Shown: positions 40,901 to 63,753, numbered from the stretch's first letter. The stretch: 64,000 nucleotides of DNA from an uncultured Saprospiraceae bacterium (GCA_937928045.1 CALFWO010000005.1:162726-226725), one strand, 5' to 3'. Numbers and translations: made by a program. Notes: generated by a model from the sequence alone, not told the origin.

Positions 40901-43377
40901 CTGACAGCATTCAACAGCAAATTCTTGTCGAGGGATGTGCTCCAGATCTTGAATTGGTTATGCCAAGTTCTTTGACAGAATGTTTTGGCGCTGAAGTTAC
41001 AATGCAAGTTAATATACAGGCTCAAGTCTCGTCAATATTTTTTCAATGGCAAGTATTTTTAAACGGACAATGGACTAACATAGATGGAGCTGATCAGGCA
41101 ATATTCACAATTGCCTCAGCCGAAACAAGTGATGAAGGAGTCTATAGATGTATTGCAGCTGGACAATTATTGGACATTGGTAATGAGGACTGTCAGATAA
41201 TTAGTCCAGAAATTGATCTCTCAATAACATCTCTACCAATTCCGGTTATCTCATACTTAACATTTTGTGAAGGAGATACTATAATTATTAATAATTTAAT
41301 AATTACCACTCCTGGAACTTTTTTGGATACAATAAATATTCAAAATGGTTGTGATAGTCTAATACAGTTGGAGATTGAAATGCTCTTACCAACTTCAAGC
41401 CAAGAATTTATTAATATTTGTGAAGGAGATAGTGTAAATTATAATGGCAATTGGTATTCTCAACCTACTAGTTTTTATGACACACTAACGAATGTATCTG
41501 GTTGCGATAGTATACATGCGATCAACATAGAAGTTGGACAATATACAACTGAGGAAAGATTGGTCCAAGTCTGTTTAGGAGATAGTTTATTTGCCGGTGG
41601 AGCATGGCATTCAGATCCGGGAGTATTTTTAGATACTATTAACGGAAGTAGTGGTTGTGATACGATACTTTCTACAACACTAAGTTTTGTAAATTATATT
41701 GAAAATTCGATAACCTCTAATTTGTGTTCTGGCGATACAATAATTTGGAACGGAAATCTTATTTATTCTGCAGGTGTTTGGAGGGATACAATATTAAACG
41801 CACTAGGGTGTGATACAATCTATATTCATAATGTTGTTGAAATTCCAATAGTCAACACAAACGAAAATTACATTTTATGTGAAGGCGATTCTGTTTTTGT
41901 TGCAGGAAATTGGCGATATGAAAATGGCTTTTTTGTAGAAACGTTTTCGGGCAGTTCTAGATGTGACAGCATAGTCAATAGTACTGTTGTTTTTAACCCA
42001 TCATATAGTTTTCAAGATACCGTTTTATTGTGCTTTGGAGATTCTATAGCGATAGATGGACAAATCATTACTACCGCAGGTAGCTATGCGAATTCTATGA
42101 CTTCAGTTAATGGATGTGATAGTATTATTAATTATGTTGTTGAATTTAATTTGCTAGATACTATTGAATTAGTAGAGCAAATTTGTTCCGGACAATTTTT
42201 TAATTTTAATGGGACTGAACTTTCTATTGCTGGAGACTATCAAGAGATCTTTCAAAATCAGTACGGATGCGATAGTATTGTTAATTTGACTCTTGTAGTA
42301 GAGGATGATATCGAAGTTGAATTAGAATATTTGATTTGTCCTGGAGATTCGGTTGAAATAAATGGATCTTGGTATTTTGCTAATTCAGATCTGTTTTTTG
42401 CAGATCTTGCTCAAAATGGAGGCTGCGATAGCCTGACGAATGTATCTGTTATTCTGGCTGAGGTTTATCAAGATACAAGTAGATATCAGATATGTCAAGG
42501 AGATAGTATTTCACTTTTTGGCAACTTTTATGCGGTACCAACTGAAATTATTGAAACTTCTCAGTCTGTTGATGGATGTGATAGTAACATTGTTCATATT
42601 TTAGAAATAATAGATGTTACACAATTAATTGTAGATGACGCTTATATCTGTAGAGGTGAAGGCGTAGAACTTTTTGTTGAAGGTGCAGTGGAAGTAGAAT
42701 GGTCCCCTTCGACAGGATTAAGTTGTACAAATTGTCTAAATCCAATCGCTTCACCCAATCAATCTACAACTTATACGGTATCATCCAGTTCATGTTTAGG
42801 GGAATCAGTTGAACAAGAAATAACTGTATATGTATATGAATTGCCAACCGTAAGTATTTTGGGCAATGCAAATGTTACCCCTGGTGATACACTGGAATTG
42901 ACTTATGAGGTATCCGACACCACTGCGCAATTAATGTGGTTAGATGCGCAAGGAGATACACTTTGTAATGATAATTGCCCAGATACACTTTTTGTTATTG
43001 CAGACTACAATTCAATATATACTATAGCAGCAATCGATGAAGATGGATGTAGAGCTGAGGATGAAATAGTAGTTCGAATTAATGATAAATGTGAAGATGC
43101 CAAATTGTTCTTTCCAAATTTTATTACGCCAAATGGAGACGGTAAAAACGATGAATATGTTGTGACTTACGAAGATGTAAAGTCTATTGCATTGTTAAGG
43201 ATATTTAATAGATGGGGAGAATTGATTTTTGAGACTTATGATGTAGACAATGACCACTGGGATGGAACATTCAGAGGTGTACCTGTAAACGTTGGGGTTT
43301 ATGTTTATTATTTGGAAGGGGTATGTCTTAATAATGTAGATTTTATAGAAAAAGGAAACATAACGATTATAAGATAA
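34921..43377 (+). CDS. giant SprB-like cell-surface adhesin (2818 aa): ~19 tandem HYR-type ~95-aa domains, ~12 tandem ~38-aa CxGDS…GCDS modules, Ig-like domain, T9SS type-B C-terminal domain
   Basis: Signal peptide. Repeated unit DTxxPxFxxPxDxTxxCxxxxxDLxxTGxxxxxDNCxx…YxDSxxxxxCxGxxxIxRxWxxxDxCGNxxxxxQxIxxxD recurring from ~aa 570-2050. Then repeats such as ICEGDSVNYNGNWYSQPTSFYDTLTNVSGCDSIHAINIEV. C-terminal FFPNFITPNGDGKNDEYVV…IFNRWGELIFE…WDGTFRGVPVNVGVYVYYLEG tail. Confidence 0.85.
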   Translation: MDSNKFFEGCKVFMTLLIFLCLSIIKVECQSIENGCNAASFGVDADQYANSNSFGQNANDNNYSDDWFFNPAVSNGLGIGVIDVSNAENLQQSLQSGDNLSLIYDMSIPFNTVHQGVRLLDAIYGRDFYGGTQNTDYTSYIQASKNGEDPAIWDTGPANVTPKNDLIDCFAHLRRDGINGDDDLWLFGGFSRISNIGSSYLDMELYSKDIQYTPSSGFTSAGNDEGHTAWTFDSNGNLTRTGDIVVSYNFSTNGAPEIELRIWVAQSDFQNTSPTTFSFGSEFDGGTNNSNFGYADILPPNNGIYSCGLGNPSTTFAPPWGTLNSNGNYSYNYEGGQFAEFGLNLNAFGIDPSVVLSSGAGISCDIPFSAVLFKARASQSFTAQLKDFAGPYPFEIPLTIPSDIVGDTIDCINAAVTLGPEIVIPDASYIWSTSDGNIIGTTDSAYILVDQPGTYSLDASSAPGCLVNTSSFYVPELYNYPTADIQADTIFDCGVSASLTAWPAGHVYEWSGPFNFQSDQQQISVQDEGMYIVSVMDPISQCMALDSIYLPGGPCQNIDLSELPGDGNQVIIIDNEPPMVNWPDDITLSCLDDFLNLSLTGTLGQITDNCPENLPAPFYLDLSSNGICLGEVVYNRLWYVTDFCGNLASHSQVITLVDTIPPFFIAPNDVTIDCSIDVNDLGDLGDATGEYDDCDFSIGEAFYQDSIASGVSCTGNDVIYRVWTLVDGCGNENIQIQTINFADSEAPTFTVPNNITISCSDDANDLGLTGTIEDTLDNCSNTLLTINYWDQIVVDSNCVSNYLIYRSWLVTDGCGNDSLAIQEITIEDIAAPTFTAPEDITVACDVAESDLITLGDVINEYDDCTASIANATYTDVIIASGPCPSTKTIERTWSLSDDCGNITSIIQLIEFEDTSNPTFTVPEDVTIECHEDPANLLLTGNVFDEADNCSENGLEATYIDDVTSGIPCNGSTIIQRTWTLVDDCGNTSSAIQQITLEDNTPPSFSMVAVDPQVSCDVVIPTPQIGVDLFITDACDTSLNISFYEEQTNITCPDVYVLRRVWIAEDNCGNIDSLVQEIMVEDSGDPIILVFPPDLTVSCDSIIPPGGAVVDDNCSSSITVNVNDSIVDGSCDFNYAIIRIWSWEDDCGNVNTAEQTITVVDENSPNFIPPSDTLIGCDANLSDINQTGSILNPIDNCDPTVLNTTYRDSVLNGYPCEGSQRIIRIWMVSDTCGNENEHVQVIDMIDTVSPTWTLPSDITITCETDLADLSITGNVVSIDDNCDTSLDLPTYTDSIVQDTSCLNSSIIYRNWSVSDACGNTISGIQTIVISDTIAPSFTVPSDITLDCSENVNDLNLTGFVIDESDNCQSIIGDPIYMDSVVVDQSCSGNSVIYRNWILEDACGNSIRQVQLIVIQDTIAPTFITPNDVTLDCSEDITDLSITGSVTAVLDNCSPFSIVSSHRDSLVANAGCEGQFTVIRIWTVQDMCGNSSEAWQHIYLVDNTPPFFVVPPDITLDCDADVSNVTLTGFPDSSLVDNCSSLNLNISYVDLIRDLGKCGATRNVVRTWLAVDDCGNQFSAIQNISLIDTIAPVFIAPPTIVISCTDDPSDLTITGEVDTMQIAEACGINDVTIYYVDSISLLNNCSSNYELLRTWYLIDDCDNQSSAVQVISIEDQIGPTFSAPDDITIDCDLDINELIITGVPDSIQDECSINFSTPTYRDSIVDQGSCIVEVIYRTWEVVDECGNISREIQTITLQDTIQPVFFSPADTTLHCSQDPLDFSITGLPFMPDDNCDNNLGQIMFSDSLVVSDSCAIHRALYRTWSLSDQCNNLASYLQIIYLLDTLGPSFTVPQDVTLNCEENLDNLSITGNVANEFFNCENQVGLTTYQDSLVVSSNCNEIIVHRLWNLSNNCGWDTSQVQLITLIDTLAPTFINQPADLTLSCGQALPVFTPNVIDACSSNPIILSSLDTLAGDCFNEINIVRTWMATDSCENADSIQQQILVEGCAPDLELVMPSSLTECFGAEVTMQVNIQAQVSSIFFQWQVFLNGQWTNIDGADQAIFTIASAETSDEGVYRCIAAGQLLDIGNEDCQIISPEIDLSITSLPIPVISYLTFCEGDTIIINNLIITTPGTFLDTINIQNGCDSLIQLEIEMLLPTSSQEFINICEGDSVNYNGNWYSQPTSFYDTLTNVSGCDSIHAINIEVGQYTTEERLVQVCLGDSLFAGGAWHSDPGVFLDTINGSSGCDTILSTTLSFVNYIENSITSNLCSGDTIIWNGNLIYSAGVWRDTILNALGCDTIYIHNVVEIPIVNTNENYILCEGDSVFVAGNWRYENGFFVETFSGSSRCDSIVNSTVVFNPSYSFQDTVLLCFGDSIAIDGQIITTAGSYANSMTSVNGCDSIINYVVEFNLLDTIELVEQICSGQFFNFNGTELSIAGDYQEIFQNQYGCDSIVNLTLVVEDDIEVELEYLICPGDSVEINGSWYFANSDLFFADLAQNGGCDSLTNVSVILAEVYQDTSRYQICQGDSISLFGNFYAVPTEIIETSQSVDGCDSNIVHILEIIDVTQLIVDDAYICRGEGVELFVEGAVEVEWSPSTGLSCTNCLNPIASPNQSTTYTVSSSSCLGESVEQEITVYVYELPTVSILGNANVTPGDTLELTYEVSDTTAQLMWLDAQGDTLCNDNCPDTLFVIADYNSIYTIAAIDEDGCRAEDEIVVRINDKCEDAKLFFPNFITPNGDGKNDEYVVTYEDVKSIALLRIFNRWGELIFETYDVDNDHWDGTFRGVPVNVGVYVYYLEGVCLNNVDFIEKGNITIIR

Positions 43378-43413
43378 TTTTGAAAAAACGTACCTCCCAA
43401 TACGAATTTTGCC

Positions 43414-44460
43414 ATGAAAAAATATTTAGTATTATTTGCAGTGATTCAATTAGTAATTACTCTGCAAGCGCAGGATGTTCATTTGTCGCATATTCATGCT
43501 TCACCGATTCATTTGAATCCGGCGATGACAGGTGTATTTCAAGATGGATATTTAAGATTGATCGCTAACTCAAGGTTGCAATGGGAGACATTTACAAAAG
43601 GTTATAAAACTGTAATGGCTTCTGCTGATTTGAAGTTAGTGAATTTAAATAATAGTTCCATTCTTAGTGGTGGTATTCAAGTTGCTTCTGACAAAGCTGG
43701 AGATTTGAATTTTTCTACAAATACAGCCTCAATTAATTTTTCAGTTCAAAAATCTTTTGATCGTCAAAGTAAGAATGTAGTTTCTTTTGGGTTTCAAGGA
43801 GCATTGATTAATCATAGAATAGATTTTTCAAAAATGATTGGTTATGAAATTGAGACTGAACTAATAACTGATGCACCTGAAACCATTAATGCCTGGGACG
43901 TTAGCACTGGGGTGACGTGGTTTCATTCTTTTTACCCTAAGAATCATTTTTATATTGGAGCAGCTCTGTTTCATTTGAATCAGCCATCCATTAGCTTCTT
44001 CGGAGATTTAGATCTTTACGAATTACCTTATGATGAAGTGGGAAAAATACTCTATAGAAAATTTATAATTCATGGAGGAGGAAAAATTGGTATTCATAAA
44101 AATATTAGTCTTTTACCAAGTTTTTTAATTGCAGATCAGGGACCACATCGAGAAATGAAAATGGGTACATTTTTTAAATATGAAAACAGAAGATCCAGAA
44201 AAGATAATGATTATGCAGTGTATTTGGGAGGTTGGGTCAGATGGTATTTAGAAAAAGATTTGATTGGAACTGATGCTATAGATCTTTCACTGAGAATTGA
44301 TCATGAATCAACCATTTATACTTTTTCGTTTGATGTTAATATTTCTAAACTGACAAGAGTTAGCCAAGGTTTGGGTGGCCCAGAACTTTCAGTGATTAAA
44401 ATATTTGACAAGAAGAATACCAAGCGTAAAAAATTCAAAGTAAAATGTCCAGCACTCTAA
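43414..44460 (+). CDS. T9SS outer-membrane protein, PorP/SprF family (cognate partner of the upstream type-B cargo)
   Basis: Signal peptide. N-terminal SHIHASPIHLNPAMTGVFQDGYLRLIANSRLQWETF parallels the PorP/SprF consensus (…QYMFNPLxLNPAYAG…RxQW). Beta-barrel-like remainder. Starts 37 nt after the type-B CTD adhesin. Confidence 0.8.
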   Translation: MKKYLVLFAVIQLVITLQAQDVHLSHIHASPIHLNPAMTGVFQDGYLRLIANSRLQWETFTKGYKTVMASADLKLVNLNNSSILSGGIQVASDKAGDLNFSTNTASINFSVQKSFDRQSKNVVSFGFQGALINHRIDFSKMIGYEIETELITDAPETINAWDVSTGVTWFHSFYPKNHFYIGAALFHLNQPSISFFGDLDLYELPYDEVGKILYRKFIIHGGGKIGIHKNISLLPSFLIADQGPHREMKMGTFFKYENRRSRKDNDYAVYLGGWVRWYLEKDLIGTDAIDLSLRIDHESTIYTFSFDVNISKLTRVSQGLGGPELSVIKIFDKKNTKRKKFKVKCPAL

Positions 44461-52327: not shown

Positions 52328-54991
52328 TTACCAATAAAACTGAATGTTGAGATTAGGAGTTATTCCAAGATCTGTTTTATTTGTATAGTTCAAACGAATT
52401 TTTTCGTCTGGTTTTTTATCAATAAAAAAGGAACGGTAAATAAAATTTTTTTGATTGTAGATGTTCAAAATGGAAAATCCAATTACTGCTTTCCATTTAC
52501 GTGTTTCAGAAGCAGGAATATTGTATAGAATTGTTGCATCCAGTTGATGTCTAAATGGCAATCTTCCACTGTTGTATTCATTTACAATTGGAACTATGGT
52601 TTCTTTGGTTCCGGGTCCATTGTTAGTTGTTCTAACTTCGAAGTTTTCAATAAGGGAAAACGGTGTTCCCGATGAACCTTTCCATCCTATTGAAAAATTA
52701 AAGTTTTTCAATTTATACAAATGTACCCATTGTAAAATATGAGGTTGTTCAATGTTCGCTGAAAATTCCAAGTCAAAAAACCTAGGAAATGAATGATCAA
52801 TTTGACTAAGCGAATAACTGGCCCAAGATTGATAATTGAACCATCTTTTTTTGATAAGGAAATCGAATCCTTTTATTTTAGCAGTCCCCGGCTTGTAATT
52901 GCCTTGGATCATTTCATCGAAGCCGGTAGCCAATGATGACAACCCATCTATGGTTTTATAATATCCTTGTAATTCAACGGTCCAGCGATTTTTCATAAAT
53001 ACACCGCCTATTTGAAATTGATTAGAACTTAAGACTGGCACTTCTTGGTTTCCTGCAAGTACCCACACTGGAGTTTCGATGCTAGAATTGTCACCTGCGA
53101 TTTGGATCAACTGGCTTAGGAATTGTTGATATCTTCCAGCTTTGAAATTGAATTGTAATAAGTTATTTGGTTGATACCAAAGCCTCAATCTCGGCGAGAA
53201 ATAATTTGATTTCTCCTTTTCGAAATAGCTATATCTAATTCCTAGATTAAATCCAATCTTTTTTCTAGTGGATGAATTGAAACTGGTGTATGTAGCATGA
53301 ACATTGGAAGTTAAATCCCGTTGAACATCATCCTGAGGATTATTTTGCAACTGATTAATGATCTGATGGCTGACATTATATCTAGTCAACTGATAACCTA
53401 ATTTAATTTCAACAATTGAATTTTCATAAATGTCTTTTAAGGAATAGTTGTTACTAAAATGCAGTTGTTTCTCATTGATTTTTGAACTTTTAATTCCATT
53501 TTTTCTATTTCCGTTCTCATTCTGACTTTTAACTTCATAGTCGTAGTCATAGAAATAATCAGAAGAAAGAAACGAAATTGATGATTGAAATTTGGAATTC
53601 CATAAATGATTCCATTTGATTTTAGTCCCAGAATTTTTAAGATATAAACTATCGTTTTGAAGGCTTTTTTCCCTGGTGTTGTCAATGGTTGATTTAAAAT
53701 CATTATTACCATAAAGCCATGCGATCTCGAGATTATCGCTGTTTGATAAGTTTACATTTGCACTTACGTTTGCATCTAGAAAATTAAAGTCTTCTTCAAT
53801 TATTAGGTCTTTAGGAATTCTTCCAGGATTTTCAAGCTCAAGAAGAATACCTTGCTGAATCCTACGTGTGATACTGTTGTAGGTAGGTGAACGCCAGATT
53901 TCAGAGATGGATCTTCTGACAGAGTAGATAATGTTTAGTTTATTTTCCAGAAGAGAAAGATTTCCATGTGCTGAAGCATTAATGAAATTTAATCCAAGAC
54001 CAAAGTTCTTTTTCCTATCAATATTATTTTTAGACTTTAAATCTATTAATCCCGAAATTCTGCCACCATAGTCAGCTCCAAAACCTCCGCGGAAAACTCT
54101 TGCCTGATCCATAATTTCTGGATTTAGCGCAGAGATCATTCCGAAATAATGCGCTGAATGATATAGCGGAATATCTTCCCACAAAATAAGGTTTTGGTCA
54201 GAAGAACCTCCTCTAATACTTAGACTAGCAGAAGAGCCATCAGTAGAAGTAACACCTGGCAAAAATTGTATGCTATTCAATACATTACCGTCTGATTGCC
54301 CGGGTAAAGTTTTTAGTTTTTGTGGATGTACATCAGTGAAATCACCATTCTTCCTAAGTGAAATTCCATCCGTTATATAATCGGTAACAACAACAAGGCC
54401 TTGCTCAATTTCATTAAGTTTCAAATATATTTCTGAACAGTCACCATTACTAATATCACTGGCTTTTAATATTTTATCTTGGTATCCTATATAGCTAATT
54501 ATTACTTGGTCAGATAATTCTGCCTCTATTTGATATTTGAATTTTCCTTCTAAATCCGCAGCAATACCTTTTTTTCTATTAGGAATGAAAATGTTCGCAA
54601 GTACTAATGGGTCACCAGTTTTTTCGTCAAGTATTTGTCCACAGAATGTAAGTGATGGTAAAGAAATACCAGATTCTTTTAATAGCTTATCATTTATTTG
54701 GTAAATTAAAACGTAGCGATTTTCAACTACTTCAAAATCGAGTTCTTTGTTTAAAAGTAATTGAGCTAAAAATTCGTTTATTGAGGTTGAGTGAAAAGAT
54801 CCACTTATCCTGATGCCATCTATTGCTGTTTCAGGGTAAGAAAATAGAAATCCATTTTCTTTTTCTATTTGAGAAAAAACATCAACAAGCGAGGCATTCT
54901 CTACTTCAAGATTAATCGGATATGTTTGTCCAGATGCGAATATCGTCAAGAACAAAAATGAAAGAACAACAAGGCATTGTTTAAAGTACAA
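52328..54991 (-). CDS. TonB-dependent transducer (STN signalling domain + CarboxypepD_reg-like + plug + barrel) of a FecIRA-type cell-surface signalling system
   Basis: Signal peptide. N-terminal STN-like domain (LVDVFSQIEKENGFLFSYPETAI…FLAQLLLNKELDFEVVENRYVLIY). Plug and 22-strand-sized barrel ending …NIQFYW. Immediately downstream of the FecR gene. Confidence 0.85.
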   Translation of the reverse strand: MYFKQCLVVLSFLFLTIFASGQTYPINLEVENASLVDVFSQIEKENGFLFSYPETAIDGIRISGSFHSTSINEFLAQLLLNKELDFEVVENRYVLIYQINDKLLKESGISLPSLTFCGQILDEKTGDPLVLANIFIPNRKKGIAADLEGKFKYQIEAELSDQVIISYIGYQDKILKASDISNGDCSEIYLKLNEIEQGLVVVTDYITDGISLRKNGDFTDVHPQKLKTLPGQSDGNVLNSIQFLPGVTSTDGSSASLSIRGGSSDQNLILWEDIPLYHSAHYFGMISALNPEIMDQARVFRGGFGADYGGRISGLIDLKSKNNIDRKKNFGLGLNFINASAHGNLSLLENKLNIIYSVRRSISEIWRSPTYNSITRRIQQGILLELENPGRIPKDLIIEEDFNFLDANVSANVNLSNSDNLEIAWLYGNNDFKSTIDNTREKSLQNDSLYLKNSGTKIKWNHLWNSKFQSSISFLSSDYFYDYDYEVKSQNENGNRKNGIKSSKINEKQLHFSNNYSLKDIYENSIVEIKLGYQLTRYNVSHQIINQLQNNPQDDVQRDLTSNVHATYTSFNSSTRKKIGFNLGIRYSYFEKEKSNYFSPRLRLWYQPNNLLQFNFKAGRYQQFLSQLIQIAGDNSSIETPVWVLAGNQEVPVLSSNQFQIGGVFMKNRWTVELQGYYKTIDGLSSLATGFDEMIQGNYKPGTAKIKGFDFLIKKRWFNYQSWASYSLSQIDHSFPRFFDLEFSANIEQPHILQWVHLYKLKNFNFSIGWKGSSGTPFSLIENFEVRTTNNGPGTKETIVPIVNEYNSGRLPFRHQLDATILYNIPASETRKWKAVIGFSILNIYNQKNFIYRSFFIDKKPDEKIRLNYTNKTDLGITPNLNIQFYW

Positions 54992-54996
54992 TTAAA

Positions 54997-55944
54997 TTAA
55001 TTTTTAGAAAGTTTAACTTTTCTATTCTGTAGTATATTAAACTTTATTCCTAGAGGGGAGAGGGTCGTTTTTAAAGCCAATTCTAGATTATCCTTTTGAA
55101 AGTTACAAGTAATTACTTCATTAATATTAATGTCAGTATTATCAATATCAATATTGAATTGTCTTTCCAGTTCCTGTAGCACTTCTTTTAATGCAACTTT
55201 TCTAAATTTAAATATTCCGTTCGTCCAAGCAGCTTGATTGGTGTTACCTATATCCCATTTTTTAGTCTGGATTCCTGAGGAGATTCGAACGGCTTCTCCC
55301 GCAGATAATTCTACCATTTTTTTTCCTAACTTATTCATAATCGCGACCTTTCCTTCCTGACAGCTTACCTCTAAATTTTGATCTCGAGCATAAACATTAA
55401 AATGAGTACCCAAGACCAAAACAGATCCACTGCTCGTATAAACTTCAAAGGTTGACCCTTTTTTTACTTCGAAATACGCTTCGCCTGATAAGTTTAATTT
55501 TCGTTCTTTTAACCAATTTTTGTCGTCAAAAGAAATCTCACTTTCCGCATTTAGAATAAATGTAGACTGATCAGGCAATACGCCAGTTTTGTTTTCTCCT
55601 TTTGATATTTTGTAGTTGGTTACAGTAGAAGATTTGGGCCAAAAAAAGATTCCAATCAAAATTAAAGCAGTAGCCGCTAATCCATATTTTAACCAAGGTG
55701 ATAAAAAATCTTTTCGACTGCTATTTGTTTGATTATTCTCTTTCTTAGCAACCGATTCCGCCTTCTTATGGTTCAAAATATTATGTAGCATGCTAGTCTT
55801 GTCAAACTGAGGTGCCATCAAATGCTCCGTTTGTTTATACAACTCTAGCAAAGATTTATATTCTGGTCTAGCTTGAAAAATTTTCAATTCTTCGTCAGAA
55901 ATGCTTCCTGCTATCCATTTATGTAAAAGTTCGTCATTTTCCAT
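54997..55944 (-). CDS. FecR-family anti-sigma factor / signal relay protein
   Basis: Cytoplasmic N-terminus, single TM (LAATALILIGIFFW), then a periplasmic FecR-type domain (…LPDQSTFILNAESEISF…SGEAYFEV…). 60 nt downstream of the ECF sigma gene. Confidence 0.85.
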   Translation of the reverse strand: MENDELLHKWIAGSISDEELKIFQARPEYKSLLELYKQTEHLMAPQFDKTSMLHNILNHKKAESVAKKENNQTNSSRKDFLSPWLKYGLAATALILIGIFFWPKSSTVTNYKISKGENKTGVLPDQSTFILNAESEISFDDKNWLKERKLNLSGEAYFEVKKGSTFEVYTSSGSVLVLGTHFNVYARDQNLEVSCQEGKVAIMNKLGKKMVELSAGEAVRISSGIQTKKWDIGNTNQAAWTNGIFKFRKVALKEVLQELERQFNIDIDNTDININEVITCNFQKDNLELALKTTLSPLGIKFNILQNRKVKLSKN

Positions 55945-56004
55945 TTTTAGTTGATAATTATTACTTCCGATCTAAATACAGCCGAGTTCCTTAAAGACCT
56001 ACCT

Positions 56005-56517
56005 TTAAGGAATTAATTTGGAGACTTTTCTTAAACTATTTAAAGCATTATACATTCTCTTTTCTACAGCTTGCTTGCTAATTCCGAGGAGACTTGCTAT
56101 TTCTTTATAAGTTTTTTTGTCGATTCTACTCATTAAAAATACAACTCGCTGCTTCTCGGGTAATTCAGAAATCGCTTGTTCTAGTTGTCTTTGGAATTCT
56201 TTTTCTTCGATAATAAATTCAGGATCTTGAATATTGATGTTATTGGTTGAACGTTGTTCAAAGGCCAAAACCACCTTCTGATGACTAATTTGATTGAGCA
56301 TTAGATTTTTGGCAGTTTTAAAAACATATCCTTTGGCGGTAGCAAAAATCACTTTTTTGCAATTCTGCCAAAGTTTTACGAATGCTTCTTGAGTGAGATC
56401 CTGTGCTAAATTTTTATTCCCCGTTTTGTAAAAGAGGTAGTTATGAAGCGAAATCGCATACTCGTCAAAAACTTGGGAGAAAGTGGCCTCGTCACACAGA
56501 GAAATTGGTTTACTCAT
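56005..56517 (-). CDS. ECF (sigma-70 family group IV) RNA polymerase sigma factor
   Basis: Region 2 (LAQDLTQEAFVKLWQN) and region 4 HTH (KTYKEIASLLGISKQAVEKRMYNALNSLRK). Confidence 0.85.
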   Translation of the reverse strand: MSKPISLCDEATFSQVFDEYAISLHNYLFYKTGNKNLAQDLTQEAFVKLWQNCKKVIFATAKGYVFKTAKNLMLNQISHQKVVLAFEQRSTNNINIQDPEFIIEEKEFQRQLEQAISELPEKQRVVFLMSRIDKKTYKEIASLLGISKQAVEKRMYNALNSLRKVSKLIP

Positions 56518-56655
56518 AATTATTTCGAATTTTTCTTCAAAACAAAGTAGGTCTTTTGTAAAACGCCCTGTCTTTATATTAAAGAGACGAATTCGCCTGC
56601 AAATTACGGATAACAGTTGATTTTGTTGTGTTCTATAATTATATATCTGAAGCCG

Positions 56656-57867
56656 ATGAACAAGAAAAATGTAGAAGATATTTTAGCACGAAGAGAAATT
56701 TTATTGCTGCTATTGATATTGATTGGATTTACTTCTTGTGTTCCGGACAATAATCTAGGTAGTGATACAATTGATATAAATACACTTGATCCAAACAACG
56801 GAACAAACTCGAATAGTACCTCAATGGTGGAATTGGGTAGGCAATTGTTTTGGGATCCAGTATTATCTGGTGGAATGGATGTGGCTTGTGTAAGTTGTCA
56901 TCATCCTGATTTTGCTTATGCTGATGGTAGGGCATTGCCTATTGGCGTTGGAGGACAAGGACTGGGGCCACAAAGAATTGATGCAGTAAATGACAACATT
57001 GGTTTGGTAGGAAGAAATTCTCCAACTATCCTTAATACGGCATTTAACGGGCTGGATGAAAATGGAAATTTTAATCCAGTAACCGCGCCTATGTTTTGGG
57101 ACAATCGGGCGCAAAGTTTGGAATCTCAAGCTATCCAACCTTTGCTATCATTTGAAGAAATGCGGGGTCATGCCTTTGATGAAACGGTGGCCATAGATAG
57201 TATTGTAGCGCGTCTTGAAGCGATACCAGAATACGTCTTAAATTTCAACAATGTTTTTGGGAATAATTCTTCCATTAATTCTGATAATATTGGTACTGCT
57301 ATAGCCGCTTTCGAACGGACCATTTTAGCAACGGATAGTCCTTTTGATCGATTTCAAGCAGGCGACAATAGTGCTTTGACAAATGCTCAGATTAGAGGAA
57401 TGAATACCTTTCAAAGAGTTGGATGCGAAGATTGCCACAGTGGCTCAATGTTTTCAGATTTTGAATTACATACTATTGGTGTGCCGGATAGTCCACTTTT
57501 AAATGAAACAGATTCTGGTGCCAATGGGAACTATGAGTTTCGAACTCCAACTCTAAGAAACCTTCCGCAAACAGGCCCTTATTTTCACAACGGAGTTGCA
57601 GGTTCATTGGAAGAAACAATTCGATTCTATATAACTGCAAGAAATTTCGCAAACAACAATGGAAATGGTGGACCAGAAAATTTAAAGATTAACCCTAATG
57701 TAAACAGAAATCAATTGGACAACGATATTAGAAATCTGGGCCCAATAAATAATAACAATGTTCAAGATATTATCCAGTTTTTACATGCATTGAACGACAC
57801 GAATTTTGATAAAATAATTCCTACTTCGGTTCCAAGTGGATTGAATCCCGGTGGTAATATTAACTAA
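56656..57867 (+). CDS. di-heme cytochrome c peroxidase (CcpA/MauG family) lipoprotein
   Basis: Lipoprotein signal (LILIGFTSC). Two heme-binding CxxCH motifs (CVSCHH, CEDCHS). Family-typical spacing and the PxFHNG region (GPYFHNGVAGSLEE). Start placed at the internal Met (MNKKN…). Confidence 0.85.
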   Translation: MNKKNVEDILARREILLLLLILIGFTSCVPDNNLGSDTIDINTLDPNNGTNSNSTSMVELGRQLFWDPVLSGGMDVACVSCHHPDFAYADGRALPIGVGGQGLGPQRIDAVNDNIGLVGRNSPTILNTAFNGLDENGNFNPVTAPMFWDNRAQSLESQAIQPLLSFEEMRGHAFDETVAIDSIVARLEAIPEYVLNFNNVFGNNSSINSDNIGTAIAAFERTILATDSPFDRFQAGDNSALTNAQIRGMNTFQRVGCEDCHSGSMFSDFELHTIGVPDSPLLNETDSGANGNYEFRTPTLRNLPQTGPYFHNGVAGSLEETIRFYITARNFANNNGNGGPENLKINPNVNRNQLDNDIRNLGPINNNNVQDIIQFLHALNDTNFDKIIPTSVPSGLNPGGNIN

Positions 57868-58012: not shown

Positions 58013-60163
58013 ATGGCACTCCCAATCAGAAAATTAGATTTACGATATTTTGAATTACCTCTGAGTTTTGGAATATTGATATTTATCTTATTGTTAGTCG
58101 GACTAGATGCTTCTTATGCTCAGAACACCCCGTCAGAAAATGAAATTAAAATTTATGGAACAAACTTTCAAACTTTTAAACATATTCCTAGAATCAAAAA
58201 CAGCAATCGTTCTGTTTGTAGTCATCAACCTAATCGTACAATTGATGGTACCTGTAATAATATTGTAAATACCAGTACTATGGTTTGGGGTGCTACAGAT
58301 ATTCCTTTGTTCCGTGAGATGCCTTCAGCTTACGGAGCTCCTGACTTTTATAATGATATGGCAGGGCAATGCAGATTGTCACCTAGAGTAATTTCAAACT
58401 TGGTTGTTGCTCAGGATGGTGATTTACCAAGCCCGAGAAATTTATCTTCCTTGGTATTTACTTGGGGACAATTCCTAGATCACGATATTGATCTTACACC
58501 AGAAGGTGAAACAGAATATGTACCAATTTTACTTTCTGCAAATGAACCACTTTTTACACAGCCAATTCCTTTTTTAAGATCTGAACCTTTTCCAAATTCG
58601 GGTGTGAACGGTCCAAGAGAGCAGGAAAATATAATTACTTCATGGATTGATGCTTCTCAAGTGTATGGTTCAGAAGAAACGAGGGCTATGTGGTTGAGAA
58701 CATTTACTGAAGGTAAGTTAAAAACTTCTGAAGGGAATCTACTGCCCTATAATACAGTTGATGGTAATCTCGATAGCGCAATCGATCCAAACGCTCCAAG
58801 TATGGCCGGTGACAGTGATGGCACAGTTAAAGTTTTTGTTGCTGGAGATGTTCGAGCGAATGAACAACCGGGACTAACATCTATGCATACTTTGTTTGTA
58901 AGAGAACACAATCGTCTTTGTGATCAGATTAACAATGAACCAGGTAGTAATTTTTCCGATGAGGAAGTATACCAGCAAGCTAGAAAACTTGTTGGAGCAT
59001 ATATGCAAAACATTACCTACGAACACTTTCTTCCTGCTTTAGGGGTTGAATTAGAAAATTATAATGGTTACAAACCTAATGTTCAACCTGATATCAGTAA
59101 TATATTCGCTTCTGCGGCTTATCGATTAGGTCATACAATGGTCACAGATGAAATTCCCTTGATTGCTGAAGATTGTGAATTAGTTGATGATGGTTTCATT
59201 GCTTTATTGGATGGATTTTTTAATCCTACGGTAGTACAAGAAAATGGGATTGAACCACTTATTCAGGGTTTGGCAAGTCAGATTCAACAGAAAGTGGATG
59301 CTAAGATTGTAGACAACTTAAGAAATTTTTTATTTCCAGTACCTGGATCTAATCAAACCTTTGGATTAGATCTGGCTTCTCTGAACCTTCAAAGGGGCAG
59401 AGATCACGGATTGCCGGATTATAATGCAGTACGAACTTTTTACGGCCAAGAATCCGCAAGTGGATTTGAGGATATAACCACTGATCTTGAGTTACAAACT
59501 GCGCTGTCAAAAGCCTATGGCTCAGTATATGATATGGACCTCTGGGTAGGCCTATTGTCAGAAGATCCAATGTCAGGAACTTCAATTGGTCCAACCTTAA
59601 ATGCAATTCTCTCCCAGCAATTTGAGATTTTGCGGAATGGTGATTATTATTTTTATCAAAATGACCCTGTGTTGAGTAATCAGGCTAAAGAGCAAATTAG
59701 ACGTACAGATCTCGCTGAAATCATAGAACGCAATACATCAATTTCAAGAATTCAAAATAATGTGTTTTTTGCAAGAGATTGTGGTGATTCACCCGGAGGT
59801 GGCAATGGACCCGGAGGGCCAGGTCGACCTAATCGTCCTAGAAATGATGGTGGAGTAAATCAAATAAACATTAATTCGAGTGTTGACAACAACTTCAATA
59901 CTTCAACTTTAAATTTATACCCAAATCCGAATCAAGGTCTTTTTGAGATTAATTTCCTAAAGGAAGAGCTTACTCAAAATGTTCGAATGAATATTGTTGA
60001 TATCAATGGTCGAATAGTGTACAACGACGAGTTAAATACAACTGAAAAAAGTATAAATTTTAAACTTGATATGAGTCATCTATCTCCAGGATTGTACATC
60101 GTAAAAATAAGTTCAGGAGATGCTGTTTATACCCAAAGAATGATGATTAATAAAAAGGAATAG
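58013..60163 (+). CDS. animal-type heme peroxidase (peroxidase-cyclooxygenase superfamily) with T9SS type-A C-terminal sorting domain
   Basis: Signal peptide. Distal-His/Ca motif region (TWGQFLDHDIDLTP). Proximal region (MHTLFVREHNRLC). …LPDYNAVR…, Gly/Pro-rich linker. C-terminal LNLYPNPNQGLFEINF…PGLYIVKI tail. Confidence 0.8.
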   Translation: MALPIRKLDLRYFELPLSFGILIFILLLVGLDASYAQNTPSENEIKIYGTNFQTFKHIPRIKNSNRSVCSHQPNRTIDGTCNNIVNTSTMVWGATDIPLFREMPSAYGAPDFYNDMAGQCRLSPRVISNLVVAQDGDLPSPRNLSSLVFTWGQFLDHDIDLTPEGETEYVPILLSANEPLFTQPIPFLRSEPFPNSGVNGPREQENIITSWIDASQVYGSEETRAMWLRTFTEGKLKTSEGNLLPYNTVDGNLDSAIDPNAPSMAGDSDGTVKVFVAGDVRANEQPGLTSMHTLFVREHNRLCDQINNEPGSNFSDEEVYQQARKLVGAYMQNITYEHFLPALGVELENYNGYKPNVQPDISNIFASAAYRLGHTMVTDEIPLIAEDCELVDDGFIALLDGFFNPTVVQENGIEPLIQGLASQIQQKVDAKIVDNLRNFLFPVPGSNQTFGLDLASLNLQRGRDHGLPDYNAVRTFYGQESASGFEDITTDLELQTALSKAYGSVYDMDLWVGLLSEDPMSGTSIGPTLNAILSQQFEILRNGDYYFYQNDPVLSNQAKEQIRRTDLAEIIERNTSISRIQNNVFFARDCGDSPGGGNGPGGPGRPNRPRNDGGVNQININSSVDNNFNTSTLNLYPNPNQGLFEINFLKEELTQNVRMNIVDINGRIVYNDELNTTEKSINFKLDMSHLSPGLYIVKISSGDAVYTQRMMINKKE

Positions 60164-60183: not shown

Positions 60184-60231
60184 AAAAGTCGTCACTTAAT
60201 TCTTAAGTGGCGACCTTTAATATCATTTTTT
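60184..60231 (+). terminator. rho-independent terminator of the heme peroxidase gene
   Basis: GTCGTCACTTAA-ttc-TTAAGTGGCGAC forms a 12-bp stem with one G·U, followed by a T-run. Confidence 0.55.
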
Positions 60232-61029
60232 AATAAAAATAGGTATGTAAGAATGAAAGGAAAGCAAGAAAGGTTTTTTACCACATTTCGATTGCTCTTT
60301 AGATTAATTAGATAAGTGTAATCAAAGATTGATTTTTGAAAACAATGTGTTTGATTCTGCGGATTGTCATATGTTAGTCAGTTTGTTGGAATCTTTACAG
60401 ATATTTGGTTTGAAGAAATTTGCAATCAAGGAAGTATTCGCAATAAACTTCGGGATAAGAGCATTTTCAAAATGTATTTTGCAAAGACTTTCAATCATGA
60501 ATATTTAGACAAATTTGCTAAGCCTATTCGTTTATATTTTCCTGAAATAAAATAAATAGATACGTGCAGTAATTTCTTTTGATGTAATATCTTTTTTTGA
60601 TATGCGAAAATTACTGTCTTTTAAATATAACTCTCTTTCCAACTATCCATTATTTATTCCTACCTTTGCTTTTAATGAAAGAACTAATACATCAGCAAGC
60701 AGGAGACTTTATTTTTTGGAAAATGGAAGATAACTACAGTATCATTCTACTAGCTGGTATCAATCGTAAGAAAGAAAAGGAATTTAAGCTTAATGAAACC
60801 GAGAAGAAGCATTACCTAGATCGTGGTATGGCTTACATTCGTGAGTTGGTAAAAAAGAAAGGATAAATAATGTTATTTGTGTCTGAAAAGTCATTTGCTA
60901 ACAAATTTTGTTATTCCTGTTATATAATGTCATTGCAATAGACTTAAGAATTTTCTCCATTAAAATTGCATCAGTCGTTTAAGCGATAAACTGAGAACCT
61001 AAAAAAGTTCAGTTGTTGTTCATTCCGGT

Positions 61030-63753
61030 TTACATTGTAAGGCCAGTTTCTTTCTTATTTCTACCCAACCTGTACTTTATACCCGCCAAAAAGTAGCGTG
61101 TCAAGGTATTGAAACGCTGTTCAAATACTCCATTTAGGCCACCAGATCTTGAAAGGCCAACATTTTGCTTGAGGATATCATAGGCCTCAAGGCTAATTTG
61201 CCACTTATTTTCTTTAAAACTCTTAGTCAAGCTAGCATTCCAGAGGTTGTATTGGATGCCTTCCGAAAATATTTCATTGGAGTAATTATGAAAGTCATAT
61301 GAACTGGATAAGGTCCAATCTTTAGTGATAAACCAATCGGCCTCTATGAATAACTTATAGTTAAGAAATTGTTGGTTAAAATTAGATTCTAGAGCATAGG
61401 CCCTCGTATTGTAATTGAACTGAGTACCAACAGCGATATCCAGTTTTTCTTTTTTGCGGTTCTCCAATACAAAACTTAAGCCCATGGATTGCTCCTCAAC
61501 AGGACTTTTCTGTTCGTTCAGAAATCCTTCGTAAGTGGAATAGCTATAGTTGACATTTGCTCTAAATTTTATCTTAAGTGGACGAATTGGAGCATTGAAT
61601 GTGAGCCTTCCTATTAGACGTAAGTGCTGATCTAAGTTAATTGGTGAAAATGTTTTTAGAAAATTTTCATCAATAGTCACTTGATCGTTAACCCAATTGT
61701 TTGTTAATTCTGCAATTGAGTAAGCGAATAGATTTGTGAAATTGAATTGATCGATGATGCTAAATCTTGCTTGAATTTGATGTTTGTATGCTGGTTCCAA
61801 ATTCGGATTCCCTTTAAAAAGAATATTGGGATTACTATTGTCTGGCAACGGAGCAAGCTGATTTAAACTTGGTAAGTCAATCTGAGTCGTGTAGTTAAAA
61901 CTAAGCTTTGAAATTTTTGTCAATGTATGTTCAATTGACAGCGATGGCAAAATGTAAAAATTTTGATTTAAGATAGATTCTTCTAAACTTGAAATAGCTC
62001 CTTTAATTTTTGCCCATTGCGAAGTAATTCCGGCGTTAAGTTTTATTTTTTTTGTATTTCTTCTGATTGATAATTGTGCTTTTTGAATTGTATTCGTTTT
62101 TGTAAATTGATTCGAAAAGTCTTCATTAAAAATTTGCGAGGAATTGATAACATCATAGAATTTCTGAATCGGAAGTTCTTCTTCGTTTTCAAAATTATAC
62201 GAACCAGATAAATAGGAATATTTACCCAATGGCTCCGTGTAGACAGAGCGAAGTTCTACTTTGTTATTGGTAAATCGAAAATCTTGAAGTTGTGTGATCA
62301 CAGTTCTAGGAGTAGTTAATTCTAATAAGTTATTCAACTCCCTATCTTCTGTTAGACTTCCCAACTGGTAGTTTATTCTGTTAATCCAATTTCTACCTTT
62401 CTTTTGGAATTTTTTTCGCAACTGGATATTGCCATCGATTCCCAATTGATCATTATTTTGCATGGTCAATCTTTGGGTTAAGCCTGTAGCGAGTTCGTTG
62501 GTAAAAAATTGAGTGGTATCCTTGTGAACTTCGTTGTTATCAGCAATACTCAAATTATTTGTCCACTTCCACTGAATGAATGGAGAAGGTTTAAAATCTA
62601 ATTTTACCTGAACACGATGTTGTTGATTGCTTTGAGTTAAGTTGGATGAAGAGTTTGTTGAAAAATTTTCACTACCTGTGAATTCTTTGCTAAAGGTATT
62701 TTCTTGAATAGATTGATCGTTGTTTAATAGAAAGTAATGGCTACGTATTATAAACTTTGAAGAAAAATCATAGTTGAAATTAATTCCTGTTGAAATGTTT
62801 TCAGTCAAACCTCTAGGAGCGGAACCTTGCCCAAATTCTCCAAAATTTATTAAGCCATTGTTGCCAGCAATCGCATTTCCAATGCCACCCATTAATTGAA
62901 TGTACTCGTTGAACGAAAAAGCTTGCTTGTTGATATTATTCGCGTTGGCGATAATTGCAGCTTGCATCTTCGGATTGAATCGATTGTAATTTAATTTTCC
63001 ATTGAATCGCTCCTCGGTCCCTGCTTGTAACTCTAAAGCACCAAACCCTCCTTTCTTGTATTCTTCCTTTAGCTTTAGGTTAATTGTTTTTTCATCTGCT
63101 CCATCATCAATTCCAGTGAATTCGGCGATCTCAGATTTTTTGTCAAATACTTGCACCTTGTCTACAGCTTCGGCTTCAAGATTTTGAGTGGCAATCTTGG
63201 CATCTGATCCAAAAAATTCTTTTCCATCTACCAATACATTTTCAACATCCTCTCCCATCGCTTTGATAGTTCCGTCTCGAGTAACTTCGACTCCTGGTAA
63301 TTTTTTAAGCAAATCTTCAACAGTGGCGCCTGGCCTTGTTTTGAAAGCAGAAGCGTTGTAGTTAATAGTATCTCCGTCAATTCCCATGGGTATGTGCTCC
63401 GCCTTAACTTCCACAATTTGCAAGACTTCTTCCTCAGATTCCAATTTAAATATTCCCAAGTCTTGTACTTTGTTTTCTGCATTGACTGTTATCGCTAATT
63501 CTTGATTTGAAAAAGAAACAAAACTCAATTGAAGCACATAACTTCCCTCGACTATATCTTCCAATTTGAATTTTCCGTTGTGATCCGAAATGGCAAATGC
63601 GACCATGGAGGAATCTTGAATTTCTAACAAGACGACGGTAGTACCTTGTAAATTTTCTCCGTCGGTATCTTGAATTATTCCGTGGAGCACTCCTTGAGCC
63701 AAAGTGGTTCCAGCGGTAAGTATGAATAATAGAGAGATCAATACAGTTTTCAT
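61030..63753 (-). CDS. TonB-dependent receptor / outer-membrane beta-barrel family protein (CarboxypepD_reg-like + plug)
   Basis: Signal peptide. N-terminal VLHGIIQDTDGENLQGTTVVLLE…DHNGKFKLEDIVEGSYVLQLSFVSF. Plug region (DGDTINYNASAFKTRPGATVEDLLKKLPGVEV…). 907 aa. Confidence 0.75.
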   Translation of the reverse strand: MKTVLISLLFILTAGTTLAQGVLHGIIQDTDGENLQGTTVVLLEIQDSSMVAFAISDHNGKFKLEDIVEGSYVLQLSFVSFSNQELAITVNAENKVQDLGIFKLESEEEVLQIVEVKAEHIPMGIDGDTINYNASAFKTRPGATVEDLLKKLPGVEVTRDGTIKAMGEDVENVLVDGKEFFGSDAKIATQNLEAEAVDKVQVFDKKSEIAEFTGIDDGADEKTINLKLKEEYKKGGFGALELQAGTEERFNGKLNYNRFNPKMQAAIIANANNINKQAFSFNEYIQLMGGIGNAIAGNNGLINFGEFGQGSAPRGLTENISTGINFNYDFSSKFIIRSHYFLLNNDQSIQENTFSKEFTGSENFSTNSSSNLTQSNQQHRVQVKLDFKPSPFIQWKWTNNLSIADNNEVHKDTTQFFTNELATGLTQRLTMQNNDQLGIDGNIQLRKKFQKKGRNWINRINYQLGSLTEDRELNNLLELTTPRTVITQLQDFRFTNNKVELRSVYTEPLGKYSYLSGSYNFENEEELPIQKFYDVINSSQIFNEDFSNQFTKTNTIQKAQLSIRRNTKKIKLNAGITSQWAKIKGAISSLEESILNQNFYILPSLSIEHTLTKISKLSFNYTTQIDLPSLNQLAPLPDNSNPNILFKGNPNLEPAYKHQIQARFSIIDQFNFTNLFAYSIAELTNNWVNDQVTIDENFLKTFSPINLDQHLRLIGRLTFNAPIRPLKIKFRANVNYSYSTYEGFLNEQKSPVEEQSMGLSFVLENRKKEKLDIAVGTQFNYNTRAYALESNFNQQFLNYKLFIEADWFITKDWTLSSSYDFHNYSNEIFSEGIQYNLWNASLTKSFKENKWQISLEAYDILKQNVGLSRSGGLNGVFEQRFNTLTRYFLAGIKYRLGRNKKETGLTM

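Follow-up and report, generated by a model that had tools for sequence, protein, structure and literature searches.

A stretch of 64,000 nucleotides from an uncultured Saprospiraceae bacterium (GCA_937928045.1, CALFWO010000005.1:162726-226725; hereafter the window) carries at 58013..60163, on the plus strand, an open reading frame (ORF) for an animal-type haem peroxidase. We consider it probable that the product is a lactoperoxidase-like enzyme exported by the type IX secretion machinery (T9SS), and that its gene is induced by a cue as the second cistron of a unit, shared with a MauG-type di-haem enzyme gene, which is switched by an extracytoplasmic function (ECF) sigma factor. The protein has the domain architecture of a T9SS cargo and a conserved set of catalytic residues, and the window holds additional T9SS features. 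The gene belongs to a conserved five-gene module (ECF sigma factor, FecR-type anti-sigma factor, TonB-dependent receptor, MauG-like enzyme and peroxidase), in which a conserved sequence motif is found whose direction follows the genes behind it.

Identity, active site and export features of the peroxidase

The peroxidase gene and the parts of its product are located as follows.

58013..60163, plus strand: haem peroxidase gene, 716 aa from ATG to stop, with signal peptide, An_peroxidase domain, Gly/Pro linker and type-A T9SS C-terminal domain (CTD)
58013..58120, plus strand: predicted Sec signal peptide, aa 1–36, read by eye as MALPIRKLDLRYFE, then the hydrophobic core LPLSFGILIFILLLVGL, then DASYA, with Q after the cleavage site
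58235..59767, plus strand: An_peroxidase (peroxidase-cyclooxygenase) catalytic domain, aa 75–585, PF03098
59783..59902, plus strand: Gly/Pro/Asn-rich linker, approximately aa 591–630, from the sequence; predicted to be disordered
59915..60148, plus strand: type-A T9SS C-terminal sorting domain, aa 635–712, PF18962 and TIGR04183

A first-pass annotation made from the DNA sequence had placed an animal-type haem peroxidase at this position, and its boundaries proved to be exact. The Pfam search that it recommended returned a full-length match to An_peroxidase (PF03098; E = 6.5e-142, 474.2 bits for a cut-off of 25, profile positions 2–530 of 530, aa 75–585). When solved structures were searched with the protein, the best match was CyanoPOX (8S6C, E = 4.4e-135), followed by myeloperoxidase (MPO), Dictyostelium peroxinectin A, eosinophil peroxidase (EPO) and lactoperoxidase (LPO), at approximately 1e-63 to 1e-70.

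We counted residue pairs between the window protein and CyanoPOX through the phmmer alignment and took the roles of the CyanoPOX residues from the published description (PMC11776367). On the distal side of the haem, Gln153 corresponded to CyanoPOX residue 77, Asp156 to Asp80 (the first ester-bond residue), His157 to His81 (the distal His), Asp158 to Asp82 (a Ca2+ ligand), Arg281 to Arg199 (the distal Arg) and Glu284 to Glu202 (the second ester-bond residue). Thr209, Trp211, Asp213 and Ser215 of the Ca2+ site (TSWIDAS, aa 209–215) corresponded to CyanoPOX Thr140, Trp142, Asp144 and Ser146. On the proximal side, His374 (YRLGHT, within AAYRLGHTMV) corresponded to the proximal ligand His294 and aligned with 'AFRYGHTLI' of MPO, Asn458 (LNLQRGR) corresponded to Asn376, the hydrogen-bond partner of the proximal His, and Arg371 and Arg461 corresponded to Arg291 and Arg379, which contact the haem propionates. 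All of these residues were invariant in an alignment of 18 homologues except for Thr209 and Trp211, the latter being conserved in at least 90% of them.

The same alignment bears on the signatures described for the superfamily, namely X-G-Q-X-X-D-H-D-X (whose Gln binds halide, whose first Asp forms an ester bond, whose His is catalytic and whose second Asp binds Ca2+), X-R-X-X-E-X, and a proximal His bonded to Asn (PMC4420034). The window protein carries them as WGQFLDHDI (aa 151–159), VRANEQ (aa 280–285) and the pair His374/Asn458, and each was invariant among the homologues, in the second case with respect to its Arg and Glu. Thus, the distal His/Asp site QFLDHD (aa 153–158) named in the first-pass annotation holds, with His157 as the equivalent of CyanoPOX His81, and neither of the findings that would have spoken against that annotation, a lack of the catalytic His, Arg and Asp residues on alignment (here to 8S6C) or of a sorting-domain match, was observed. 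Its proximal His region, in contrast, was misassigned: the motif HTLFVREHNR is present (aa 292–301), but it is a conserved helix directly after the distal Arg/Glu motif and aligns with 'MHTLLLREHNR' of MPO, whereas the proximal ligand, His374 in AAYRLGHTMV, lies 75 residues further on.

The residue following the ester-forming Glu284 is informative about the type of enzyme. Gln285 aligned with the Met of the MPO segment 'SSEMPELTSMHTL', so that 'SSEMP' in MPO is matched by 'ANEQP' in the window protein. In MPO this residue, Met243, directly after the ester-forming Glu, makes a sulfonium link to the haem. A Gln at the position of the sulfonium Met therefore suggests an LPO-like rather than an MPO-like enzyme, from which efficient oxidation of chloride would not be expected. 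The mammalian enzymes LPO, EPO and MPO (family 1 of the superfamily) share the fold family and the catalytic and ester-bond residues with the window peroxidase, which has the LPO-like Gln (RANEQ); compared with them, it has no MPO-type Met, no propeptide or processing into heavy and light chains, shorter loops and a predicted T9SS export route. At the level of sequence, these comparisons confirm the product of 58013..60163 as a lactoperoxidase-like haem peroxidase of the peroxidase-cyclooxygenase superfamily.

CyanoPOX, from Cyanobacterium sp. TDX16, oxidises iodide (kcat 885 s-1), guaiacol, 2,2'-azino-bis(3-ethylbenzothiazoline-6-sulfonic acid) (ABTS) and 2,6-dimethoxyphenol (2,6-DMP) (PMC11776367), and the related cyanobacterial enzyme LspPOX has been placed with the family 6 'peroxidockerins' (PMC4420034). 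The distal Gln/Asp/His/Asp, the Arg/Glu pair, the proximal His/Asn pair, the propionate-contacting Arg residues and the Ca2+ ligands are identical in CyanoPOX and the window peroxidase. Each is a bacterial enzyme of one domain that ends in a sorting signal and is secreted, secretion being a prediction for the window protein. They differ in two respects. CyanoPOX is without disulfides, whereas the window peroxidase has several conserved Cys residues (C81, C303, C388 and C590 invariant and C69 conserved in at least 90% of the 18 homologues). Moreover, the tail of CyanoPOX is of the PEP-CTERM type (PMC11776367), whereas that of the window peroxidase consists of a Gly/Pro linker and a T9SS type-A CTD, which suggests that the same catalytic domain carries surface-sorting tags specific to each lineage.

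Features expected of a T9SS cargo were found at both ends of the protein. By inspection, the N-terminus shows a basic n-region, a 17-residue hydrophobic core and the sequence SYA before the putative cleavage site. Gln37, directly after this site, was conserved in at least 90% of the 18 homologues and preceded by Ala in their consensus, so that the A-Q junction itself is conserved. Gln after the cleavage site is typical of signal peptidase I substrates in Bacteroidota. At the other end, the Gly/Pro-rich linker proposed in the first-pass annotation is readily recognised (the stretch GGGNGPGGPGRPNRPRN at aa 595–611), and the type-A Por-secretion tail that it proposed scored above the cut-off in both models, Por_Secre_tail (PF18962; E = 1.5e-15, 57.7 bits against 27, aa 635–712) and TIGR04183 of NCBIfam (51.2 bits against 23), the matches together spanning aa 635–713 of 716.

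An AlphaFold2 model built from the 18-sequence alignment was poor over the catalytic domain (mean predicted local distance difference test, pLDDT, of 49.8), because the alignment was shallow, and was usable for the CTD only. There it showed seven beta-strands within aa 632–712 (pLDDT 70–86) arranged as a beta-sandwich, preceded by a region with pLDDT below 50 (aa 586–630). A modelled seven-strand domain behind a disordered linker agrees with the described type-A CTD, an Ig-like seven-strand beta-sandwich whose processing route has also been reviewed (PMC10202324). Generic T9SS type-A cargo resembles the window protein in its Sec signal peptide, flexible linker and Ig-like CTD of approximately 80 aa (PF18962/TIGR04183); what differs here is the passenger, a haem peroxidase.

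Elsewhere in the window lie a PorP/SprF gene (43414..44460) and four more genes for CTD-bearing cargo, which suggests that the organism uses the T9SS and supports export by this route; T9SS core genes such as SprA/Sov and GldK-N were absent from the 64 kb. We accordingly infer that the peroxidase is exported by the T9SS. The other cargo genes are of diverse types. One gene, for a HYR_4C protein of 2818 aa with a type-B CTD (CHU_C), is directly followed by the PorP/SprF gene (together 34921..44460, plus strand), an order typical of type-B cargo and its cognate PorP/SprF. The three others lie on the minus strand and encode a reprolysin-like M12B metallopeptidase with Por_Secre_tail (7640..10165), a 1946-aa Big_9/cadherin-like/P_proprotein protein with Por_Secre_tail (16738..22578) and a DUF6923 protein with CHU_C (23926..26523).

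The combination of peroxidase and sorting domain is common in this lineage. PF03098 and PF18962 occurred together in 109 of the 120 best matches that we took from a collection of 5.8 billion proteins, and the source names of the matches were 'peroxidase family protein' or 'T9SS type A sorting domain-containing protein'. Many of the 120 (for example, P0012 and P0003) belong to a sister group from Saprospiraceae, of approximately 1150–1170 aa, with two tandem An_peroxidase domains and a T9SS CTD. In a scan of one genome per species, at least 428 loci encoded relatives of the peroxidase; the best 80 of these, used for the neighbourhood analysis below, were nearly all from Saprospiraceae, Chitinophagales, Lewinellaceae or Puia metagenome-assembled genomes. 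The peroxidase-CTD architecture is thus routine in this lineage and already annotated automatically. Within the literature searched, we found no paper on the combination of T9SS and haem peroxidase, and nothing relevant for the superfamily name with type IX secretion; the word 'peroxidase' is absent from a 2023 review of T9SS effectors (PMC10202324).

The divergent sigma factor cassette and its motif

Upstream of the peroxidase gene lie a gene for a MauG-type di-haem protein on the same strand and, divergent to both, a cassette of ECF sigma factor, FecR and receptor genes, surroundings that the first-pass annotation does not mention.

52328..54991, minus strand: gene for a TonB-dependent receptor of 887 aa with an N-terminal extension, putatively of the signalling type; Plug and CarbopepD_reg_2 above cut-off
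54997..55944, minus strand: FecR-type anti-sigma/signal-transducer gene, 315 aa; PF04773 (E = 6.9e-18) and PF16344 (E = 9e-07)
55972..56002, minus strand: predicted ECF-dependent promoter, copy 2, GTAGGTCTTT-AAGGAACTCGGC-TGTATTTAG, 2 mismatches
56005..56517, minus strand: ECF sigma factor gene, 170 aa; Sigma70_r2 and Sigma70_r4_2
56547..56577, plus strand: predicted ECF-dependent promoter, copy 1, GTAGGTCTTT-TGTAAAACGCCC-TGTCTTTAT, 0 mismatches
56656..57867, plus strand: MauG-type di-haem lipoprotein gene; ORF opens with TTG at 56617, likely start ATG at 56656, 403 aa; PF03150 (E = 2.1e-45)
60188..60214, plus strand: terminator-like hairpin with a 12-bp stem, 25 nt past the peroxidase stop, from a consensus scan

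The sigma factor scored just below the cut-off of TIGR02985 (126.1 against 126.4 bits) and above that of TIGR02937. The receptor gene starts 5 nt past the FecR stop. Its product has approximately 70 extra residues at the N-terminus (aa 30–97), for which both STN (18.7 against 28.4 bits) and FecR_C (20.9 against 24.4) remained below cut-off, and receptor orthologues in three related loci (L118, L121 and L122) gave unmarked FecR_C matches. Read by eye, the receptor has no FRAP/NPNL haem-receptor boxes. The cassette was conserved in at least 15 related loci. One of them (L001) had the same five-gene layout as the window, and in two others (L006 and L015) the cassette was directly divergent to the peroxidase gene.

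By comparing the intergenic regions of these loci, which are otherwise unalignable, we found a bipartite motif of fixed spacing, GTAGGTCTTT-N12-TGTCTTTAT. Copy 1 lies 78 nt upstream of the ATG of the MauG-like gene and is directed at the MauG-like and peroxidase genes; copy 2 lies between the stop of the sigma factor gene and the ATG of fecR, 27 nt upstream of the latter, and is directed at fecR and the receptor gene. Allowing up to 3 mismatches, these two copies compare with 0.02 expected by chance in the window, and none was found in 76 unrelated peroxidase loci (1.02 Mb). The two-copy geometry was present in all 12 related loci with both sides of the sigma factor gene on the contig (L001, L006, L015, L085, L116, L117 and L119–L124), and extra copies were found 26–69 nt upstream of MauG-like genes placed separately from the cassette (L015, L119, L122 and L123). 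The ten loci reached through orthologues of the sigma factor (60–71% identity) all had the motif at the expected positions. A scan of metagenomes for the motif returned 35 stretches, of which six (L082, L085, L090, L095, L109 and L110) and probably a seventh (L086) belong to the cassette; the other matches, approximately 28 of 35, lay inside unrelated ORFs and are chance occurrences, at about the number estimated for an 18-base pattern.

Throughout these loci the two blocks were conserved and the 12-nt spacer was not, the orientation always followed the downstream gene, and several copies lay 26–35 nt before a start codon. Conserved blocks around an unconserved spacer are what –35 and –10 elements would be expected to show. 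The TGTC block is similar to (C/T)GTC, the core of ECF –10 elements. We therefore predict that the motif is a promoter, with GTAGGTC as its –35-like and TGTC as its –10-like element, and we infer from its position and conservation that it would be recognised by the divergent ECF sigma factor. In its own orientation, the sigma factor gene is not preceded by a copy within 56005..56577 of the window, so that it must have a different promoter, within approximately 30–50 nt of copy 1. One related locus (L006, approximately 7530..7590) has a long near-perfect palindrome (GTTACGTAACTCGGATTGTTGATCCGAG...CTCGGATCAACAATCCGAGTTAC) between the sigma factor start and the motif, which is absent from the other loci.

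The 145-nt spacer between the MauG-like and peroxidase genes contained neither a terminator-like site, by consensus scan, nor a TAnnTTTG box of the Bacteroidota type, as would be consistent with a common transcript. A scan for sigma-70 promoters was uninformative (22 matches, against 17.5 ± 4.6 in shuffled sequence, no excess). Downstream, an 89-aa ORF (60597..60866, plus strand) had no family match; beyond it and convergent to the peroxidase gene lies a gene (61030..63753, minus strand) for a 907-aa outer-membrane protein with CarboxypepD_reg and OMP_b-brl_3, a homologue of which was nearby in 1 of the 80 loci (L009).

The MauG-type partner and composition of the proposed regulon

Numbered from the ATG, the product of 56656..57867 has a lipobox Cys28, two CxxCH haem-binding motifs (C78–H82 and C257–H261), Trp148 and Tyr325. 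The last of these, in RFY, aligned with Tyr294 of MauG. In MauG, Tyr294 is an axial ligand in place of the Met of classical cytochrome c peroxidases (CCPs). Among solved structures the whole protein matched classical bacterial CCPs slightly better (approximately 1e-33) than MauG (approximately 1e-25), whereas the best match of its C-terminal half was MauG (3e-8). C78/C81/H82, C257/C260/H261, the inter-haem W148, Y325 and the lipoprotein Cys were invariant in six motif-associated homologues representing two subtypes. A classical CCP was accordingly considered and rejected for this gene, the Met-ligand position being held by a MauG-type Tyr. The scores fell well short of the equivalog cut-offs (159 against 443.85 bits for MauG, TIGR03791, and 156.3 against 362.85 for MbnH, TIGR04039), and no neighbour scanned matched an MbnP or methylamine dehydrogenase (MADH) model. 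By sequence, then, the protein appears to be of the MauG type (His/Tyr), and it cannot be filed as MauG or MbnH.

Comparison of the loci showed that the targets of the motif vary. The order of the window, with the cassette divergent to a MauG-like gene followed by a peroxidase-CTD gene, recurred in L001, L120 and L121, and the reverse order of the two target genes was found in L015, L123 and a 4.8-kb Logan contig. In L082/L110, L116, L119, L122 and L124 the divergent MauG-like gene stood by itself or next to a small unknown gene, and in L006, whose 17.6-kb locus is without a MauG-like gene, there was a divergent peroxidase gene alone. Other secreted proteins may take the same slot: the motif-driven divergent gene of L090 (901..1977, plus strand, on a 2.3-kb contig) encodes a 358-aa DUF6923 protein with Por_Secre_tail, and in L086 (2465..4911, minus strand) a CCP_MauG gene, whose product is 29% identical to its counterpart in the window, and a YHYH (PF14240)-CTD gene are separated by 45 nt that contain an exact copy of the motif, no ECF cassette being identified on this 10-kb contig.

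For 10 orthologues of the sigma factor, the longest contig was equally long as for the peroxidase matches, and three contigs shared between the two sets were checked. Two of these (P0150 and P0145) were confirmed outright; the look-up of the third (P0215) returned a different contig of 14.2 kb (L121), likewise with a peroxidase gene beside the cassette. Roughly a third to a half of the cassettes sampled include the peroxidase, which makes it a common accessory target.

Two observations concern individual loci. In L119 (5808..7543, minus strand), a 495-aa MauG-like gene preceded by two copies of the motif overlaps a 91-aa ORF matching Por_Secre_tail; this may represent a di-haem enzyme fused to a T9SS CTD, either genuinely or in frameshifted form. 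In L122 (1186..2318, minus strand), SelR/MsrB and PMSR/MsrA genes lie approximately 4 kb from the MauG-like gene of the cassette; this could be a link to oxidative stress or a coincidence.

The closest parallel at the level of the system is found in methanotrophs, namely the MbnIRT triad with MbnP/MbnH, and SACCP/MopE (PMC3621798). Like FecIRA and MbnIRT, the window combines an ECF sigma factor, a FecR-like sensor and a TonB-dependent receptor with an N-terminal extension, and these adjoin a MauG-like enzyme and a secreted partner-type protein. Unlike MbnIRT, it belongs to Bacteroidota, it has no methanobactin genes and no MbnP, its di-haem enzyme scores below the MbnH and MauG cut-offs, the partner slot is taken by variable T9SS cargo, here a haem peroxidase, and a promoter-like motif is conserved. 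In the literature searched, nothing relevant was found for MauG-like proteins in combination with TonB, anti-sigma factors and Bacteroidetes, and the module of ECF sigma factor, FecR and TonB-dependent transducer, its promoter-like motif and its MauG-type partner are not described there.

Proposed mechanism, alternatives and significance

From these features the following course of events can be proposed. The TonB-dependent transducer would bind an extracellular ligand, upon which the ECF sigma factor would be released from the FecR-type anti-sigma factor and would read the motif upstream of the MauG-type gene, the peroxidase being transcribed behind it as the second cistron. The peroxidase precursor would cross the inner membrane via Sec, with the signal peptide cut between SYA and Q, and would fold in the periplasm and take up haem and Ca2+. 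The T9SS would then recognise the C-terminal beta-sandwich and translocate the protein, the CTD would be removed, and the enzyme would either leave the cell or be anchored on its surface. In this extracellular location it would react with H2O2 to form compound I, which might oxidise phenolic substrates or convert small anions, likely iodide, bromide and thiocyanate by analogy with CyanoPOX and LPO, into hypohalous or hypothiocyanous oxidants. The candidate roles are hypohalite production, peroxide handling and MauG-like protein modification. The most likely purpose, in our ranking, is a cue-induced extracellular oxidant or peroxide-handling response, followed by pure peroxide defence.

Several points weigh against this reading. 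The steps from secretion to induction are proposals, and the fold of the catalytic domain is taken from sequence homology to 8S6C, its AlphaFold model having the low mean pLDDT given above. The reading requires that haem b reach a Sec-exported protein in the periplasm, and no H2O2-generating enzyme is encoded nearby. No solved structure matched the TonB receptor at E < 0.01. Co-transcription with the MauG-like gene is deduced from the 145-nt spacer, which has no terminator-like site or TAnnTTTG box. An orthologous ECF cassette was found in only 3 of the 80 reference-genome loci, and no neighbour was conserved family-wide, so that the proposed regulation would apply to one subclade. Finally, cassettes sampled regardless of the peroxidase mostly have a MauG-like gene alone as the divergent target (L082/L110, L116 and L124), which suggests that the MauG-like enzyme is the core and the peroxidase an accessory member of the regulon. 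A family-wide operon partner of the peroxidase was also sought and rejected: in ORF clustering over the 80 loci, the commonest neighbour occurred in only 12, and a di-haem CCP gene lay within 8 kb in 7.

If the peroxidase at the surface and the di-haem enzyme in the periplasm served only to scavenge exogenous H2O2, for instance of algal or photochemical origin, no dedicated role would fall to the products of halide or phenol oxidation. In favour of this, H2O2 is consumed in the family chemistry of both enzymes, one promoter motif is common to both, and msrA and msrB lie near the cassette in L122. However, a TonB-dependent transducer senses a bound ligand rather than H2O2, and peroxide regulons normally have sensors of the OxyR or PerR type. 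LPO-type enzymes, moreover, turn H2O2 into more reactive oxidants and do not detoxify it, the Tyr-ligated di-haem type differs from the classical scavenging CCP, and the conserved module is without a gene for catalase, AhpC or the like. We therefore regard defence alone as unlikely, and we rank above the remaining proposals only this one. Less probable still is that the di-haem enzyme, as MauG acts on preMADH and as has been suggested for SACCP and MopE, oxidatively modifies the co-regulated peroxidase in the periplasm before T9SS export, which would make the peroxidase a client and not an independent effector. Such a maturation would be in keeping with the Tyr in place of the classical Met, with the MauG match of the C-terminal half and with the invariance of the Tyr, both CxxCH motifs and the inter-haem Trp. 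The peroxidase is paired behind the same motif with each of two MauG-like subtypes, of 61–65% and approximately 29% identity to the window protein, the same slot also holds the DUF6923-CTD and YHYH-CTD proteins, and MbnIRT with MbnPH and SACCP with MopE set a published precedent in which a FecIRA-like triad is accompanied by a MauG-like enzyme and its partner protein (PMC3621798). Nevertheless, the MauG-like gene occurs without an adjoining exported partner in L082/L110, L116 and L124, L006 has the peroxidase without a MauG-like gene, the MauG and MbnH cut-offs are not reached and no MbnP-like gene is present; CyanoPOX is active when produced alone in E. coli, so that basic activity requires no helper (PMC11776367).

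The regulatory part of the preferred reading would fail if the motif were not a promoter but, for example, inverted repeats flanking the sigma factor gene (bounding an invertible segment or terminating a mobile cassette) or a site to which an unrelated transcription factor binds, in which case the peroxidase would not be under this sigma factor. Indeed, the two constant copies flank the gene in inverted orientation, 29–48 nt from its ATG and within approximately 50 nt of its stop, and the distance from copy 1 to the start of the downstream target varies widely, from 47 to approximately 385 nt. Recombination repeats would be expected to match throughout, whereas within one locus the 12-nt spacer differs between copies whose blocks are conserved. 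Other genes have a third copy immediately before them in the same orientation (MauG-like genes in L015, L119, L122 and L123; the YHYH-CTD gene in L086), several copies are separated from a start codon by 26–35 nt, a promoter geometry, and TGTC is similar to an ECF –10 core; all of this argues for a promoter, and we give the other possibilities little credence. The least credible proposal is an inactive peroxidase serving as a surface adhesin, as discussed for peroxinectins. The family includes peroxinectins with roles in adhesion (PMC4420034), many T9SS cargo proteins are adhesins, and cadherin-like and Ig-like repeat proteins are among the T9SS cargo encoded in the window. Against this, all haem, catalytic and Ca2+ residues are conserved and nearly all are invariant in homologues, the closest characterised relative, CyanoPOX, is highly active, and Pfam detected no adhesion domain or integrin-type motif; we find a purely adhesive role barely plausible.

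More speculative than the preferred reading, a cue-induced and exported LPO-like enzyme, is its extension to a ligand-triggered extracellular oxidative system, to which we assign a low probability. In such a system, the transducer would sense a prey, algal or environmental compound and the sigma factor would induce a halogenating peroxidase together with the MauG-type enzyme, the latter maturing an exported protein or processing the imported ligand. If true, this would be a bacterial, surface-signalled counterpart of the oxidative burst of animal peroxidases, and would connect MauG-like protein-oxidising chemistry with T9SS cargo for the first time.

Robust and easily produced biocatalysts for halogenating and antimicrobial uses are sought among the bacterial relatives of lactoperoxidase (PMC11776367, PMC10204396). 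With regard to their natural roles, the cassette and its motif offer a regulatory handle on when and why such an enzyme is deployed. As a protein annotation the gene is unremarkable, and its interest lies in the regulon. Saprospiraceae and related Bacteroidota routinely build haem peroxidases as T9SS cargo, which implies that these enzymes would act outside the cell, and the recurrent pairing with a MauG-type enzyme suggests a functional link between two unrelated haem enzymes that both use peroxide.

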